Positions 1,695 through 8,225 of a stretch of 51,473 nt of DNA are shown here, one piece after another. The notes below the pieces were generated by a model. It ran no database searches. It worked only from the letters and a program-made list of their open reading frames with translations, and was not told the origin of the DNA. The stretch lies in contig CAZVQJ010000001.1 in the NCBI GenBank assembly GCA_964629165.1, positions 1-51,473 on the forward strand, in the 5' to 3' direction. How positions within the stretch are numbered: the stretch's first letter is position 1; every line of letters starts with the position of its first letter. A program made the translations under genes and the position numbers. This stretch comes from an uncultured Puniceicoccaceae bacterium. GTDB taxonomy: Bacteria; Verrucomicrobiota; Verrucomicrobiia; Opitutales; Oceanipulchritudinaceae.

Positions 1695-2564
1695 ATGAGC
1701 TACCTCTGGTTCACCACCGCCTTGTGGGCGTTCTCGTTCAGCCTGATTGGGGTATATCTTTCCGGCCAGGTGGACCCATGGTTCATGGTCATGACGCGTG
1801 TGGGGCTGGCGGCCCTCGTTTTTCTGCCATTTCTGAGGCGGGCCGCTCTGAGCACAGTCGCTTTACCGCTGATGGGGATTGGCGGCGTACAGCTTGGGCT
1901 GATGTACGTTTTCTACTATCAGTCGTTCCTCCTCCTGACGGTGCCCGAGGTGCTGATTTTCACGATTTTCACGCCCCTCTACGTGACGTTGCTCTACGAT
2001 CTTCTGGAACGGAGATTCAAGCCGGTCTACCTCGTTACGGCAGCGCTTGCGGTGGGAGGTGCGGCGGTCATGCGCTACGGTGCACTCTCGGACGAATACT
2101 GGCTCGGTTTCCTCGTTGTCCAGGGGTCGAACCTTTGTTTCGCCCTGGGGCAGGTGGGCTACAAGGCGTGGCAACGACGATGGGCGGCGCCGGTGCCCCA
2201 GTACTCGGTTTTTGGATACTTTTATCTCGGTGCGTTTGTTGTGGCGGCGGGCGGATGGCTCCTTTTCGGGACTGCGAAATACCCCTCGAGCGGCCTCCAG
2301 TGGGGGATTCTGGGATGGCTCGGGGTGGGCGCGAGCGGGCTCGGCTACTTCCTCTGGAATTTCGGCGCGACGCGCGTCAATGCAGGTGCACTTGCGATCA
2401 TGAACAACGCGCTCATCCCGGCCGGATTGATCGTCAACGTCGTGATCTGGAACCGGGAAGCGGATCTGGTGCGCCTCGGCATTGGAGGATCTGTGCTCGT
2501 GGGAGCGCTCCTTCTCAACGAGTGGGTAGTACGACGGAGGCCGCTTGCGCCAGTTGCGAGCTAA
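1695..2564 (+). CDS. EamA/DMT-family transporter (10-TM drug/metabolite transporter superfamily)
   Basis: About 10 hydrophobic helices with two EamA-like halves. ATG at 1695 (MSYLWFTTALWAFSFSLIG) begins the first TM helix. The upstream part of the ORF is a non-membrane extension. Confidence 0.75.
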   Translation: MSYLWFTTALWAFSFSLIGVYLSGQVDPWFMVMTRVGLAALVFLPFLRRAALSTVALPLMGIGGVQLGLMYVFYYQSFLLLTVPEVLIFTIFTPLYVTLLYDLLERRFKPVYLVTAALAVGGAAVMRYGALSDEYWLGFLVVQGSNLCFALGQVGYKAWQRRWAAPVPQYSVFGYFYLGAFVVAAGGWLLFGTAKYPSSGLQWGILGWLGVGASGLGYFLWNFGATRVNAGALAIMNNALIPAGLIVNVVIWNREADLVRLGIGGSVLVGALLLNEWVVRRRPLAPVAS

Positions 2565-4720
2565 GCCAGTATCTTGGCGATGGCGGACTGCAGGCGCCCG
2601 AAGTCGACGGGTTTGGTGAGGTGCTCGCCGAACCCGGCTTCGTGACAGGCGTCGATGTCGTCTTCCATGCCGTATCCACTCAGGCAGATTCCCCGGATAT
2701 CTGCCTGCAGGGAGCGCATCCGCTTCATGAGTTCGATGCCGCTTTCGTCGGGCAGTCCTACATCGGAAACGACGAGATCGAAATTCATTTCCTGGAAAAG
2801 TCGGTAACCTTCGGCGGCGGTTTCGGCATGTTCCACCGTGTATCCCGCACTTTGCAGGAGGCGTTTGAGAATCTTACCGGTGTCGCCATGATCCTCGACG
2901 AGGAGGATGTGTGGGGGCGCGTCTCCGTTGACTGGGGAGTGGACGGGAGAGGCGCACGGAGAGGAGGCCGGAGCATCGGGAAGCTCGGATGCGGGAAGGG
3001 TGACGACAAAGGTGGAGCCGTGTGAGTGACCCCGCGATTGCACTTCGATTGTGCCGTCATGGATCTCGATAATTGCCTTGGCGATGGCGAGGCCGAGACC
3101 GAGGCCACCCTCCGTTCCCTGCCTCGGTTTGCTATGGGTTTGCTCGAAGGGGAGGAAGATCCGTTCGAGGTCTTCGGAAGCGATTCCGAGGCCCTCATCG
3201 TGCACTTTCACGACGAGGCGTTGGTCCTGGATCTGTGCATGGAGGCGGATGGTGGCTCCGGGAGGGCTGAATTTTGCCGCGTTCTTGAGGAGGTTCCAGA
3301 AAACCTGTTGCAGGCGGGGCCCGTCTCCGACCACTCCGCAGCCTTCGATCTCGTCGATTTCAAGCTGCAGGTGCTGGGACTTTGCATCGATATCACCGTC
3401 GATAATCTGAACCGCATCGCGAAGCAGATCATCTGCCGCATGCAACTGACGATCGAGCTCGATCTTGCCGCGACTGACGCGAGTGAGATCGAGCAGGTCA
3501 TCGATGAGCCGGCTCTGGATGCCCGCGTTGCGTCGGATCATGGCGATGTCTTCGCGCACATCCGCCGGGATGCGAGGATCTTTCTCGAGAACTCCCGCCG
3601 CTGCGAGGACGGGTGTCAGGGGTGTGCGCAGTTCATGGGAAAGCATCGCAAGGAAGCGATCCTTGGCCTGGTTGGCCGCCTCCAATGCGGCCGCGTGCTC
3701 CTCCAGTGACTGCTGGCTGCGCAAGGTTTCGATCATGAGTGCACCTTGGGCGGCTATCCACTCGATCACCCGGAATTGCTCCTCTGTCCAGTGGGCGACT
3801 TCAGGGCTGCAGGCAACGAGCAAGCCAGCGGGTCCACGCTTGTGCGAGAGTGGCGTTGCCAGCATTGAGTGCACCGTGCGGTCGTTCCCGAAGGGCTCCG
3901 AAAGATCCGGTCGTTGCGACAGGTCGGAGACATAGGCAGTCCGGTTCTCGCGCAGGACGACGCTGGCGATCGAGTTGGATAGCGGCCATGCCCGTGGGAG
4001 TGAAGGTTCACCGGCCGCGAGAGCCTGCGACGCGAGCTCCATCTGGCCGCCATTTTGTTCGAGGATACCCACGCTTGTGGCGGGTGCCCCGATGATGGAG
4101 AGGGCGCGCTTGCACAGCTCCGCCAACATTTCTGCGGTCGAATGATTTTGGCGGAACGATTTGATCAGCCCTTCAAGGATCTCCTCACGCCCTGAAAGCC
4201 GGGTATTGAGGTCAACGAGATCTTCGTTCTGCCGCGTAACCTCTTCACTTTGTGCCTCGATTTCCTCATTCTGTTCGGCGAGTTCCTCGGCCTGCGCCTT
4301 GATTTCCTCGTTCTGCTGCAGGACCTCTTCGGTCTGCGCATCGAGTTCTGCGTTCTGGGCGGAGATCATCGCATTCCGCTGTTCCAGATGGGTCCTCAGG
4401 ACTACGATTGCGTGGACGACAACCGCACCGACCAGAATGTTGATGAGCGTGCTTCCGAGATAGAGCAGCGCGCCACGCGTCGAAACCACGTCTTCCGGCA
4501 TGACCCAGAACACCTTTGCGAGCGCCATGAGGACAAAGGAAACCGCCATCAACCAGACGTGCCAGAGGCGTCGGGTCCAGACGCATAACAGGATCGGAAG
4601 AACGAAGGTCAGGGGCAAAATGGTATCGTCGAACAGAAAGACGCGGACGTAGCCCCATCCCGCGATAAGCAGGACGACAACCGCAGTTGCGAGAAAAAGA
4701 GACGGTCGCGAAGTTTTCAT
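2561..4720 (-). CDS. hybrid sensor histidine kinase (TM region, repeat coiled coil, GAF, HisKA, HATPase_c, C-terminal receiver)
   Basis: H-box FLAMLSHELRTPLTPV. N/G boxes (NLLKNAAKFSP, DEGLGI, GGLGLGLAI). Receiver ILLVEDHGD...DLVVSDVGLPDESG...TKP. Start at ATG 4718-4720 (MKTSRPSLFLATAVVVLL), 4 nt after the cheR-like stop. The longer ORF to 5086 would overlap that gene. Confidence 0.9.
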   Translation of the reverse strand: MKTSRPSLFLATAVVVLLIAGWGYVRVFLFDDTILPLTFVLPILLCVWTRRLWHVWLMAVSFVLMALAKVFWVMPEDVVSTRGALLYLGSTLINILVGAVVVHAIVVLRTHLEQRNAMISAQNAELDAQTEEVLQQNEEIKAQAEELAEQNEEIEAQSEEVTRQNEDLVDLNTRLSGREEILEGLIKSFRQNHSTAEMLAELCKRALSIIGAPATSVGILEQNGGQMELASQALAAGEPSLPRAWPLSNSIASVVLRENRTAYVSDLSQRPDLSEPFGNDRTVHSMLATPLSHKRGPAGLLVACSPEVAHWTEEQFRVIEWIAAQGALMIETLRSQQSLEEHAAALEAANQAKDRFLAMLSHELRTPLTPVLAAAGVLEKDPRIPADVREDIAMIRRNAGIQSRLIDDLLDLTRVSRGKIELDRQLHAADDLLRDAVQIIDGDIDAKSQHLQLEIDEIEGCGVVGDGPRLQQVFWNLLKNAAKFSPPGATIRLHAQIQDQRLVVKVHDEGLGIASEDLERIFLPFEQTHSKPRQGTEGGLGLGLAIAKAIIEIHDGTIEVQSRGHSHGSTFVVTLPASELPDAPASSPCASPVHSPVNGDAPPHILLVEDHGDTGKILKRLLQSAGYTVEHAETAAEGYRLFQEMNFDLVVSDVGLPDESGIELMKRMRSLQADIRGICLSGYGMEDDIDACHEAGFGEHLTKPVDFGRLQSAIAKILA
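4190..4357 (-). repeat. four tandem 14-aa (42-nt) coding repeats inside the histidine kinase: QNAELDAQTEEVLQ / QNEEIKAQAEELAE / QNEEIEAQSEEVTR / QNEDLVDLNTRLSG
   Basis: Read directly from the translation between the last TM helix and the GAF domain. Double-heptad periodicity with an invariant QN(E/A)(E/D) start. Confidence 0.8.
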
Positions 4721-4724
4721 GGGC

Positions 4725-5588
4725 TCAGGCAGGTTTTCGAAAGATGCAGGGACCAAGTTTTTCGAGGGCGACGCCCCCGGGCGGGTGTTCGGCTTTTCCG
4801 CTGACGAGAAACCCTCCGGGAGCGAGTTCACGGATGAGGGAATGCCAGATGGTCTCTGCGGCGTTGACTTCGAGGTAGATCGCCATGTTGCGCCAGAGGA
4901 TGAGGTCCCATGGGCCCGGCTCTGCCTGTTGGAGAAGGTTGGCCTGCTTCCAGCGCAAGCTCTGGTGCAGGCGTGCGGTCGGCCGCACATTCCCCCGATA
5001 ATGGGAAAAATGTTGTTTCCAGAACGACCCGAGGTTGTTGATCGACTCGGTCGGGAATTCGCCTGCCTGCGCCTGCCGGATGGCATCTTCGCGACAGTCG
5101 GTACCGAGCAGATCGGACTCGTCGAGGAGGCCCGCCTCGTTCAGGAGGATCGCCACCGAGCAGAGTTCGCGTCCATCAGAACACGCTGCGCTCCAGACGC
5201 GAAGTGGCCGACCGAGGCAGGCAAGCCCGGGCACGACCAGGCTCCGGAGGTGCGCGAAGACGGTTTCGTCACGACAGAAGTCGGTGACTCCGAGGAGGAC
5301 GACGCTGACCGTCGCAGGCGCGAGTTCAGGCCGTGCTTTCAGTTTTGCTCGGGCATCCCGCAAATCGTTGACCCGCAGGAATCGCAGGCAGGCGGGCACC
5401 CGACGGTTGAGCGCACGACTGCGGTAGGAATCCGGTGACAATCCGACCAGATGGAACAATTCATGGAAGAATGTATCGACGCCTTCGATAGCGGAGGATG
5501 AATCCGTTTCACGCCCGCCCGTGGGGTGGGAAGGAAGCACCCTCCGGGGTTCCTTGACGCCGTGGAAGTAGAGACATTCAGACACCAT
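4725..5588 (-). CDS. CheR-type protein-glutamate O-methyltransferase-like protein
   Basis: CheR N-terminal helical part (FFHELFHLVGLSPDSYRSRALNRR), TDFCRDETVF, SAM-binding core LRVWSAACSDGRELCSVAILL, then DLILWRNMAIYL. ATG at 5586-5588. Confidence 0.85.
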   Translation of the reverse strand: MVSECLYFHGVKEPRRVLPSHPTGGRETDSSSAIEGVDTFFHELFHLVGLSPDSYRSRALNRRVPACLRFLRVNDLRDARAKLKARPELAPATVSVVLLGVTDFCRDETVFAHLRSLVVPGLACLGRPLRVWSAACSDGRELCSVAILLNEAGLLDESDLLGTDCREDAIRQAQAGEFPTESINNLGSFWKQHFSHYRGNVRPTARLHQSLRWKQANLLQQAEPGPWDLILWRNMAIYLEVNAAETIWHSLIRELAPGGFLVSGKAEHPPGGVALEKLGPCIFRKPA

Positions 5589-5770
5589 TTCTGGTAATGG
5601 TGGAAACGTGATATCCCTCGTGAGTCAAAGGCATTACGAATCGGGACCGATTGAAGAGCCTGACCGGAGGCCGAAGAAGGGCGCGTGCGGCCCGAAACCC
5701 AAGCGTGGATGAGGGACAAACGGCAATCTCTTTTCGGACGGAGCGTCCGGATGGACGTCAGGGAAGGCGC

Positions 5771-6388
5771 TCAGCCGGACTCGGCCGTTTCCTCCCAATC
5801 CCGTAGTTGAAGGAGGAGGCTCTCCCGCCTCGGTGCGAGGTCTTTTTTCACTACCCACGTATTCAGTTTCCAGATACCGGCAAAGGCGATCAAGGTACAT
5901 CCGCCCAATAGCACCGCCGGAACGGGCCATGGCATCGGACTTTCGACACCGACGGCGACGGCGAAGAGGAAAACAGGCACCGCGAGCGGCAGAAGATACC
6001 ACCAGATTACCCGCCGGAGTAGAAGAATCTGGTGTTCCACCTGAGCGAGGGCGCGGTGGATTTCGGCGAGGGGCGTGTCGGGAAGAGCCGCCAGCTTCCG
6101 GCGTTGCGTCGTGCGGTCAATCACGAGGAAAAGGGCGACGCCGAGGGAAGCGATCGCGATCAGGTAGGCGGAGGCCGTCGTGAGGGCGGGCGCTGATTGG
6201 CCGATCCAAACAAAGATCGTGGCCACGAGAACGGCGGCGGCGATCTCACGGGCGTCGCGCCAGACGATCGTACGGTTGAATGTGCGGGCGTCGAGGCGCA
6301 CCCGTTCGAGTTGTCGGGCAAATGGCATGGTGTCGGGGGGTTGGTTGTGGCTGGCTTTCCAGTGTTCCTTGCTCTCTTCAAAGTTCAT
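5771..6388 (-). CDS. 4-TM membrane protein co-transcribed with the ECF sigma factor (candidate non-canonical anti-sigma factor)
   Basis: Its start ATG overlaps the sigma-factor stop (ATGA at 6385-6388). About 45-aa cytoplasmic N-terminus, then four hydrophobic helices. No HxxxCxxC zinc anti-sigma motif. Confidence 0.6.
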   Translation of the reverse strand: MNFEESKEHWKASHNQPPDTMPFARQLERVRLDARTFNRTIVWRDAREIAAAVLVATIFVWIGQSAPALTTASAYLIAIASLGVALFLVIDRTTQRRKLAALPDTPLAEIHRALAQVEHQILLLRRVIWWYLLPLAVPVFLFAVAVGVESPMPWPVPAVLLGGCTLIAFAGIWKLNTWVVKKDLAPRRESLLLQLRDWEETAESG

Positions 6389-6891
6389 CGCGGTTCCTCC
6401 TGAAGGATGTTGTTGAGGCGTTGCCGGGCCCGGTGCAGGCGCACTTGGGCGGCGTTTTCGGAGATCCCGAGGATCTCCGCCATCTTCCGTCGGGGCGTCT
6501 CTTCGAGCGCGAGGAGGAGGATCGCCCGATCCAGTTCGGTTACCTGACGCAACGCTGCGTAGACGGCGGCGAGCCGGGCGGAGGACTCCGCATGATCATC
6601 AGCAGCGAGTTCTTCGGCCCGCGCCTGCAGTGGTTCCGGGGTGGGATGGCGTCGCTCCGTCCGGGCGCTTCTCATCGCCGTGTTGAGCCCTACCCGGTAG
6701 GCCCAGGTCGAAAGCATCGACTGTCCGTTGAACCGTGGCAGCCCCAGCCAGATCTGGAGGAGCATCTCCTGGAGGAGATCCTCTCGTTCGGCCGGCGCCA
6801 CAAAAGCGCCCGTGATCCTCCAGAGCATCGGGCGGAGGTCTTCGGCGCATTCGCGGAACATGGACTGTTTCTTTTCGTCATTCACGCTCAT
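6385..6891 (-). CDS. RNA polymerase ECF-type sigma-70 factor
   Basis: Region 2 (REDLLQEMLLQIW...FNGQS.LSTWAYRVGLN) and region 4 HTH (LDRAILLLALEE...KMAEILGISENAAQVRLHRARQRL). Confidence 0.9.
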   Translation of the reverse strand: MSVNDEKKQSMFRECAEDLRPMLWRITGAFVAPAEREDLLQEMLLQIWLGLPRFNGQSMLSTWAYRVGLNTAMRSARTERRHPTPEPLQARAEELAADDHAESSARLAAVYAALRQVTELDRAILLLALEETPRRKMAEILGISENAAQVRLHRARQRLNNILQEEPR

Positions 6892-6947
6892 GGAAATCAG
6901 TATCCGCCTTCACGGAAACCTTACACGAAAAGAGCCCATCAATGAAT

Positions 6948-8225
6948 TTAGAGCGCGCGGATGGCCCCGCAGAGGACGTCAGCCGTCTGGTCGATGTCTG
7001 CGTCGGTGTGTGCGGTGGAGAGAAAACACGTCTCATAGGCGCTCGGCGGAAGGTAGACTCCATTGTCGAGCGCATGGTGAAAGAGTTTCTTGAAATGAGA
7101 GGTCGTGCTCTTGACGGCGTCGTCGTAATTGCGCACGGGCTCGTCCGCGAAAAAGAGGGCAAACATGGAGCCCGTCTGCGGAACCTGGAGAGGCAGCCCC
7201 TTGTCGGAAGCAGCCGTGCGCAGGGCGGCTGCGAGGCGCGCGGCTTTCCGGTCGAGATCTGCGAAGGGCTGGATAGTCTCCAGTTCCGTCAGGGCGGCCA
7301 GTCCGGCGGCCATCGCGAGCGGGTTACCGGAGAGGGTTCCGGCCTGATAGACGGGACCGAGAGGAGCAATATGCTCCATGAGGTCACGGCGACCTCCGAA
7401 AGCGCCCACGGGCAGCCCGCCGCCGATCACCTTGCCCATCGCGGTCAGGTCTGGTCGCAGGCCTTCGATCGATTGCACGCCGCCAAGCGCGAGCCGGAAC
7501 CCCGTCATGACCTCGTCGAAAATGAGGATGGCGCCGGATTGATCGCAGAGGGCCCGCAATGTCTGCAAGAATCCCGCTAGGGGCAGGATCAGTCCGCAGT
7601 TGGCGGGGTAGCTTTCTACAATGACTCCGGCGATATCGTCGCCGTGTTCCTGAAAAGCGGCTTCCAGGGCAACGGGATCATTGTAGGGCAGGACAATCGT
7701 GAGCGCGGCAAGCTCGGCCGGGATGCCTGCGCTGTCAGGATTGCCGAGGGTGAGCGCACCGGAGCCGGCTTTGACGAGGAGGGAATCTGCGTGCCCATGG
7801 TAGCAGCCTGCAAACTTGACGATCTTTTTTCGGCCGGTGGCACCCCGAGCGAGTCGGATGCAGCTCATGCAGGCCTCTGTCCCGCTGTTGACGAACCGCA
7901 CCATTTCCACGCTGTCGACGAGATCGACGACCCTCTGGGCGATGGCCACTTCTGTCGCGTTCGGCGTGCCGAAGCTGGTCCCGCGCTGTGCGGCATCGAC
8001 GACCGCTTCGCGAATACCTGCGTGATTGTGCCCGAGAATGGCGGGACCCCATGTGCAGACGTAGTCAATGAGTTCGCGTCCATCGACGGTATGGAGCCGC
8101 GCACCGTCGGCGCGTTCCGTGAAAAAAGGAGCGCCGCCGACAGAGCGGAATGCCCGCACAGGACTATTGACGCCTCCGGGAAGGATCCGCTGCGCGTGTT
8201 CGAAAAGGGCGGAAGACGATGCCAT
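6948..8225 (-). CDS. hemL: glutamate-1-semialdehyde 2,1-aminomutase
   Basis: [32 protein letters not shown], the FDEVMTGFR motif and [16 protein letters not shown] (PLP lysine region). ATG at 8225 preferred over the TTG at 8237. Confidence 0.95.

Follow-up and report, generated by a model that had tools for sequence, protein, structure and literature searches.

A CheR-like methyltransferase of a separate clade encoded together with a coiled-coil hybrid histidine kinase: comparative evidence for a candidate substrate outside the chemoreceptors

Introduction

Reversible glutamate methylation is regarded as a hallmark of chemoreceptors, and we are aware of no two-component kinase that is tuned in this way. 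CheR domains are also found in CheB/CheR fusion sensor kinases, which we take to be the proteins collected under KEGG K13924 ('two-component system, chemotaxis family, CheB/CheR fusion protein'); we know of no study of their function. In Pseudomonas putida, the cfcABCDE cluster codes for the CHASE3/GAF hybrid histidine kinase CfcA and for a CheR/CheB pair, CfcB/CfcC, for which involvement in chemotaxis has been excluded (PMC4951495; PMC6849547). The CheB/CheR genes are mentioned in passing in PMC4951495, which does not deal with methylation of CfcA, and a preprint on CfcA/CfcR (bioRxiv 10.1101/2024.11.25.625174) mentions neither cfcB and cfcC nor protein methylation. Here, we analysed a two-gene locus on the minus strand of a 51,473-nucleotide (nt) contig of an uncultured Puniceicoccaceae bacterium (CAZVQJ010000001.1 of assembly GCA_964629165.1; hereafter the window), in which a gene for a divergent CheR-like methyltransferase directly precedes the gene for a membrane-bound hybrid histidine kinase. 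A comparison of this locus with related genomes provides strong sequence-based evidence for a CheR substrate other than a methyl-accepting chemotaxis protein (MCP) and defines a candidate segment of 50 residues in the kinase.

Results

The CheR-like open reading frame (ORF) of 287 amino acids (5588..4725, minus strand, stop codon included) matches the CheR model PF01739, and the hybrid histidine kinase ORF of 719 amino acids (4720..2561, minus strand) was recognised by its Pfam matches. Direct reading of the sequence places the CheR stop codon TGA at 4727-4725 and the kinase ATG at 4720-4718, with the 4-nt spacer GCCC (4721..4724, minus strand) in between, a distance indicating that the two genes are probably translationally coupled. 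The junction and all coordinates given for this locus by an earlier sequence-only reading of the window proved correct. The kinase start at 4720 was preferred over an in-frame ATG upstream (5086) because the N-termini of the kinase orthologues agree and share the pattern M....PS...ST.VV in their alignment.

According to Pfam matches and a reading of hydrophobicity, the kinase consists of four transmembrane segments, a coiled coil, GAF, HisKA, HATPase_c and REC in this order, an architecture which is common to more than 100 kinase orthologues. The N-terminal membrane region (residues 1 to ~107, 4400..4720, minus strand) holds four hydrophobic segments, which from their hydrophobicity are predicted to be transmembrane, and the conserved motif PLTFVLPLLVCVWTRR; no model matched this region in the Pfam search. 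The Glu-rich heptad coiled coil, delimited by the heptad table of the orthologue alignment, follows at residues 112-185 (4166..4387), and the remaining domains, likewise on the minus strand, are GAF (residues 193-331, 3728..4144; PF13185, 8.9e-11, and PF01590, 9.2e-6), HisKA or DHp (residues 352-416, 3473..3667, with His362 in SHELRTPL; PF00512, 1e-14), HATPase_c (residues 465-578, 2987..3328; PF02518, 1.9e-25) and REC (residues 605-714, 2579..2908, with Asp653; PF00072, 1.7e-22). The scores for PF00512, PF02518 and PF00072 each exceed the respective cut-off, and His362 and Asp653 are both in place, as in a hybrid histidine kinase. No match to the MCP signalling domain (PF00015) was obtained for the kinase in the Pfam search. 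In a precomputed table, PF28019 and PF28175 are assigned to some of the orthologues.

The four tandem 14-residue repeats that the sequence-only reading had seen between the transmembrane region and GAF (residues 122-177, nt 4357-4190) are in register in 100 aligned full-length kinase orthologues, where they resolve into seven heptads of the form Q-[N/A/S]-E-E-[L/I]-x-x. Position g is Q in 94-99%, position a is N (82-100%) alternating with A/S, positions b and c are E-E in 89-99% and position d is L/I in 92-100%, while e and f are variable. The kinase of the window has six such E-E pairs at b and c, and its residues 122-171 include 17 acidic and 2 basic residues, resulting in a net charge of -15. 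The repeat segment is thus present in the orthologous kinases and belongs to their most conserved parts: in the orthologue alignment, the mean top-residue frequency of the coil (0.74) ranks second to that of HisKA, the most conserved segment (0.81), and above those of GAF (0.57) and the membrane region (0.54). Asn at alternate a positions is typical of parallel in-register coiled-coil dimers, and in such a parallel dimer the Glu pairs at b and c would face the solvent. Judged from the alignment and this heptad register, the conservation on the exposed face exceeds the needs of a purely structural linker. No other ORF in the 2.67-Mb genome assembly contains a run of at least three such heptads.

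Coils of this type are also tied to CheR domains elsewhere. As the sequence-only reading had stated for the CheB-CheR fusion kinases, x-N-E-E-L-x-x heptads stand directly C-terminal to the CheR domain in six long CheR-fusion ORFs of relatives (~890-1330 amino acids, CheB-CheR type), and the coil profiles of the kinase and the fusions are aligned in register by hhalign with a probability of 92.5% and an E-value of 4.7e-7, scores of a kind which repetitive coils inflate. In 201 genomes evenly drawn from the class, a 66-residue consensus of the kinase coil gave 36 matches in 35 ORFs. In 24 of these, paired with the CheR-domain matches by contig and ORF length, a CheR domain lies 0.6-0.8 kb upstream of the coil, and eight are kinases adjoining the clade of the window CheR, so that the coil is linked to CheR, fused or adjacent, in 32 of the 35 ORFs; the other three (G130:C25, G234:C16 and G094:C5) are without such a link. 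Because kinship among the genomes makes these counts non-independent, no statistic is attached to them. The same reading had gone further and taken the locus for a split version of the CheB-CheR-PAS-kinase fusion. A recent split is contradicted by the position of the CheR outside the fusion clade, by the missing CheB and by the presence of GAF instead of PAS. In three genomes (G008:C40, G005:C64 and G019:C39), CheB-CheR-coil fusion ORFs of 888-897 amino acids are followed by overlapping ORFs of 530-560 amino acids, which start with a single LHELQVHQI(Q/E)LEMQN(E/A)ELR helix and continue with a PAS-like region; in these cases, the fusion and its kinase partner may be separate genes.

These properties make the coil a candidate methyl-accepting or CheR-docking segment. 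In the latter case, the coil would only be a docking site or an ordinary signalling helix, and either GAF, DHp or REC of the kinase would be methylated instead, or the kinase would be regulated simply through binding. All linkage results fit such a scenario equally well, and it accommodates both the failure of the coil to match the site consensus of MCPs (see Discussion) and the conserved LFFxG motif in the disordered N-terminus of the CheR-like protein, which could be a tether; canonical CheR uses a separate tether, the pentapeptide (structure 1BC5). However, what stays invariant among the exposed residues of the coil is the Glu-Glu pairs, matching the chemistry of CheR, in the CheB-CheR fusions the same coil immediately follows the CheR domain, and the invariant catalytic motifs make it unlikely that binding alone is the whole story. 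We consider docking without methylation of the coil unlikely, albeit a serious alternative.

In order to assess the linkage between the two genes, orthologues in the 201 genomes were defined by cut-offs of E≤1e-30 for the CheR and E≤1e-20 for the kinase's N-terminal part. CheR orthologues occur in ten genomes and kinase orthologues in ten, with nine genomes having both, and in all nine the genes are adjacent on the same strand with the CheR gene upstream. Two cases depart from this pattern: G151 has a partial CheR-like ORF, and G130 has a distant kinase homologue without a neighbouring CheR. The latter is a 614-amino-acid ORF (G130:C25, 3122-4963) with 32% identity to the kinase and four Q-x-E-E-L heptads, in a genome with five other CheR-domain genes, one of them a fusion; as a natural experiment for decay of the coil it was uninformative, because it retains these four E-E heptads.

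Furthermore, the match lists of the CheR and of the N-terminal half of the kinase have contigs in common in dozens of cases. Among the loci examined, the distance from the CheR stop to the kinase start ranges from -22 to +5 nt, the commonest arrangement being a 4-nt ATGA overlap; Opitutus terrae PB90-1 and a metagenome-assembled genome (MAG) of the Terrimicrobiaceae both have CheR and kinase genes that overlap by 4 nt. The genes flanking the pair differ among the window, O. terrae, the Terrimicrobiaceae MAG and two metagenome contigs. Even in two deep-branching members of the clade, an overlapping kinase gene directly follows the CheR gene; one of these partners is a CHASE3-DUF4118-GAF-PAS kinase of 1922 amino acids, and both have the same coil followed by a REE-x-LQ-x-LL lead-in to GAF.

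An alternative explanation for the linkage is that the CheR methylates another protein, and that the kinase controls the methyltransferase, for instance via its REC domain, or shares its regulon. With CheB, there is already an adaptation enzyme that is governed via a REC domain, and the kinase, a hybrid ending in REC, has neither an HPt domain nor a response regulator near its gene. Yet this explanation accounts neither for a coil which tracks CheR in both fused and adjacent arrangements nor for a pair which is conserved amid varying flanks, and the tight translational coupling suggests that the two proteins are produced in stoichiometric amounts. We therefore regard a substrate other than the kinase as quite improbable.

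The CheR of the window differs clearly from the chemotaxis enzymes. It scores 52.1 bits against the NCBIfam CheR equivalog NF007902, far below the cut-off of 435, and ~104 bits against PF01739, compared to 190-220 bits for the chemotaxis CheRs of its relatives. In phmmer searches, members of its clade were matched with 325-360 bits and any other CheR in related genomes with at most 81 bits. A maximum-likelihood tree of 52 CheR domains, in which the branching order of the three groups is not resolved, placed the group of the window CheR in one clade (support 100/98, stem 1.64), the stand-alone canonical CheRs in a clade of their own (95/92) and the CheR domains of CheB-CheR fusions in a third group (88/96). 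Clustering with the canonical, MCP-dependent CheRs, which the sequence-only reading had named as evidence against its proposal, was thus not seen. The clade was defined by similarity, and adjacency to the kinase was checked separately afterwards. The CheR has matches at E≤1e-30 to 354 clusters (50% identity) of a library with 1.84 billion representatives; a single-protein CheR search of the genome contig set had a sole match, from Lysobacter, with 25% identity. A very divergent CheR-like ORF of 344 amino acids (G004:C22, 4852-5883, minus strand; 86 bits for PF01739, terminal branch 4.18) was found in a genome without MCP and adjoins a 771-amino-acid ORF with one NEEL-type heptad.

With regard to chemotaxis genes, we searched for MCPs as PF00015, CheW as PF01584 and CheB as PF01339. 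The pair is present in three genomes without any MCP, CheW, CheB or CheD (G182, 97% complete; G206, 98%; G100, 99%), in G226 (98% complete) without MCP, CheW and CheD but with one CheB ORF of 216 amino acids, and in G004 (96% complete), for which MCP was the only one of these four families searched and had no match. In G182 and G206 the CheR of the pair is the only CheR of the genome, and the MCP-bearing genomes G192, G186 and G086 have canonical CheRs as well. The CheR-kinase pair is therefore independent of MCPs, which we regard as the most revealing of our findings. The stand-alone CheB ORF of G226 adjoins a second CheR-like ORF of 288 amino acids and 113 bits (G226:C1:257243-258414), and the two may be another receptor-independent methylation pair.

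The sequence-only reading had remarked on the absence of MCP, CheA, CheW and CheB from the window. This is correct for the window (contig C1), but the genome, a 91.7%-complete assembly of 226 contigs, has four MCPs, CheA and CheB elsewhere; all its MCP, CheA, CheW and CheB matches lie on contigs C53, C47, C129, C28, C55 and C121. The CheR of the window could thus be an ordinary chemotaxis CheR which serves the four MCPs away from the che genes and is next to the kinase by chance. It is indeed the sole PF01739 match in its assembly, and O. terrae has two divergently oriented MCP genes upstream of the pair. However, the MCP-free carriers, the additional canonical CheRs of the MCP-bearing genomes, the separate clade and the score far under the equivalog cut-off all argue against such a role, and a canonical cheR has most likely been lost from the assembly: contig C121 begins inside cheB, the assembly's only CheB gene, and an orthologous cheB (76% identity) of the same genus (G001:C293) lies in the order cheR-cheB-hk2 with a canonical cheR, so that the cheR gene was probably lost at the contig break. 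The argument that the sole CheR of the genome must be the canonical one was largely rejected for the same reason, and we consider an incidental neighbourhood of an ordinary chemotaxis CheR and the kinase very unlikely. At the C121 locus (2-706 and 703-2157), the cut cheB overlaps by 4 nt (ATGA) with hk2, a PAS/HisKA-like gene whose product has the H-box HDFRN and no NEEL coil; the cheR-cheB pair of the same-genus genome is likewise trailed by this kinase-like gene.

PF01739 matches residues 101-268 of the CheR-like protein with 104.3 bits (cut-off 27), and the CheR N-domain model PF03705 had no match in the Pfam search. An AlphaFold2 model built from 75 orthologues, with a mean predicted local distance difference test score (pLDDT) of 91.7 and a predicted template modelling (TM) score of 0.84, shows residues 31-97 as a helical N-domain, followed by the S-adenosylmethionine (SAM)-dependent methyltransferase domain at residues 101-268. 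Foldseek matched the model to B. subtilis CheR 5FTW (target-normalised TM-score 0.86, root-mean-square deviation 2.6 Å, 251 columns) and also to Salmonella CheR 1BC5/1AF7, with 264 columns to 1BC5; by phmmer, residues 45-267 align to residues 12-235 of 5FTW. Despite the miss of PF03705, the predicted structure is therefore that of the full two-domain CheR fold including the all-helical N-terminal domain.

Across 75-106 orthologues, the motifs TxFFRD, WSAACSxGxE, GTDxR and WRNMAIYL show no or hardly any variation, with R106, D107, W132, S133, A134, G139, E141, D164, R166, R233, N234 and Y238 invariant in 75, and they align with the S-adenosylhomocysteine (SAH)-bound structure 5FTW. Guided in part by the alignment, we equate the conserved Arg and Tyr with those that Salmonella CheR uses in catalysis. 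With the active-site motifs kept on a CheR fold, the protein looks like an active enzyme and appears catalytically intact. That it is a non-catalytic pseudoenzyme and serves the kinase as a subunit with a structural or regulatory role, as its long branch and its PF01739 score of 104 bits versus the 190-220 of canonical CheRs might suggest, is hardly credible in view of the (near-)invariance of these SAM-binding and catalytic motifs and their agreement with 5FTW. The first 30 residues are predicted to be disordered (pLDDT 57-70) and begin with M-x4-L-F-F-x-G (residues 1-10, 5561-5588 of the window), in which F8 is invariant and G10 is present in at least 90% of the 75 orthologues; this LFFxG motif may be a tether or docking motif.

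Upstream of the pair, genes for an extracytoplasmic function (ECF)-type sigma factor (6891-6385, minus strand, 168 amino acids; Sigma70_r2 and r4_2) and for a membrane protein without Pfam match (6388-5771, minus strand, 205 amino acids), probably the anti-sigma factor, overlap by 4 nt and end 182 nt before the CheR gene. We rejected these two genes (6891-5771) as parts of the module, as the flanks are unrelated in O. terrae, the Terrimicrobiaceae MAG and two further contigs. Downstream of the kinase lies a convergent EamA transporter gene. A scan of 2300-7100 for promoters and terminators yielded counts at chance level and did not indicate the limits of an operon. A 183-amino-acid ORF on the minus strand (1103-1654) has a DUF6314 match (4e-15).

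Discussion

On balance, we favour, with a little more confidence than doubt, that the CheR is dedicated to the kinase, places methyl groups on the Glu pairs of the coil and thereby tunes signalling. The proposal of the sequence-only reading that the CheR serves the kinase rather than chemoreceptors holds as far as the separate clade, the conserved repeat and the MCP-free carriers are concerned, and methyl transfer to the kinase and its effect on kinase activity are what we infer from them.

Several observations speak against this reading. The strict methylation consensus of MCPs, [ASTG]2-x2-[EQ]2-x2-[ASTG]2 over 10 residues, is matched 1-3 times in each of the four MCPs of the same genome but in none of the heptads of the kinase and in 4 of 105 orthologue coils. 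The resemblance to MCP sites, which had been part of the original proposal, is therefore a loose one, limited to heptad-spaced exposed Glu pairs that are sometimes followed by x-x-A/S, and recognition would have to differ from that by canonical CheR; it is plausible for a divergent CheR to recognise a motif that is itself divergent. A docking site with the methylated residues elsewhere would agree just as well with the conserved coil and its linkage to CheR, and the kinase homologue on G130:C25 retains the coil with no adjoining CheR. Several carriers have no demethylase (neither CheB nor CheD), which makes an adaptation-like cycle hard to picture. As the sole assembled CheR beside four MCPs and CheA, the enzyme possibly has a dual role in the genome of the window. 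Finally, our literature search found no report of a CheR methylating a histidine kinase.

Under the reading that we favour, the locus would be a two-gene module in which a divergent CheR is co-translated with a membrane-bound hybrid kinase and acts on this kinase rather than on chemoreceptors. The likeliest target would be the seven-heptad parallel coiled coil joining the last transmembrane helix to GAF, where methyl esterification of the glutamates at b and c would neutralise charge and stabilise helix packing. The resulting shift of the on/off balance would be passed on to GAF and DHp, as happens on methylation of chemoreceptors. In carriers without CheB and CheD, this would be a slow one-way set-point, reset by turnover, dilution or an unrelated esterase, and not a fast reversible adaptation. 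It is a tentative extension, which we think somewhat more likely to fail than to hold, that the module gives a two-component sensor a covalent memory which needs a single enzyme and no receptor, with a mark that is effectively one-way without CheB/CheD and a sensitivity set by methylation history. If true, such a memory, which nothing but turnover of the protein or its dilution would erase, would represent a so far undescribed mode of two-component regulation.

The significance of the locus lies in a CheR clade which is bound to one kinase family and is kept in genomes without chemoreceptor, CheW, CheB and CheD. Since the pair occurs in O. terrae PB90-1, it is present in a cultured organism. 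We have not seen the variant described that combines a CheR only, from its own clade, with a hybrid kinase of four predicted transmembrane segments, coil and GAF in carriers without chemoreceptors.

Comparison with known systems

Canonical CheRs (Salmonella 1AF7/1BC5, B. subtilis 5FTW) share the two-domain fold, as modelled, and the active-site motifs with the CheR of the window. The proposed substrate likewise resembles that of canonical MCP adaptation, as it would be a long dimeric acidic coiled coil near the membrane with heptad-spaced exposed Glu pairs. In contrast to canonical adaptation, no part is played by an MCP signalling domain, CheA or CheW, the pair is retained in genomes lacking MCPs, the strict site consensus is not matched, several carriers are without CheB/CheD and the CheR falls outside the canonical clade. 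CheR paralogues carrying TPR repeats are similar in that they have specialised in signalling other than motility and their genes often accompany those of multidomain regulators containing a kinase, but they work in MCP-CheA-CheW pathways, whereas the CheR of the window has no TPR and its module no MCP.

The CheB/CheR fusion sensor kinases have the same Glu-rich heptad coil tied to a CheR domain and a histidine-kinase core downstream. Here, however, CheR is a separate gene 4 nt upstream, there is no CheB (no PF01339 match in the window), the coil comes after a region of four predicted transmembrane segments and before GAF rather than PAS, and the CheR lies outside the clade of the fusion CheRs.

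The nearest published analogue, as far as an analogy of domain descriptions can tell, is the cfcABCDE cluster. In both cases, a GAF-containing hybrid kinase is clustered with a chemotaxis-type methyltransferase outside chemotaxis, and a deep member of the clade of the window CheR pairs with a CHASE3-DUF4118-GAF kinase. The cfc cluster differs in having CheB and further genes, and CfcA in having a periplasmic CHASE3 sensor. If the coil were indeed methylated, this would also explain the large family of CheB-CheR fusion kinases and clusters such as cfc of Pseudomonas.

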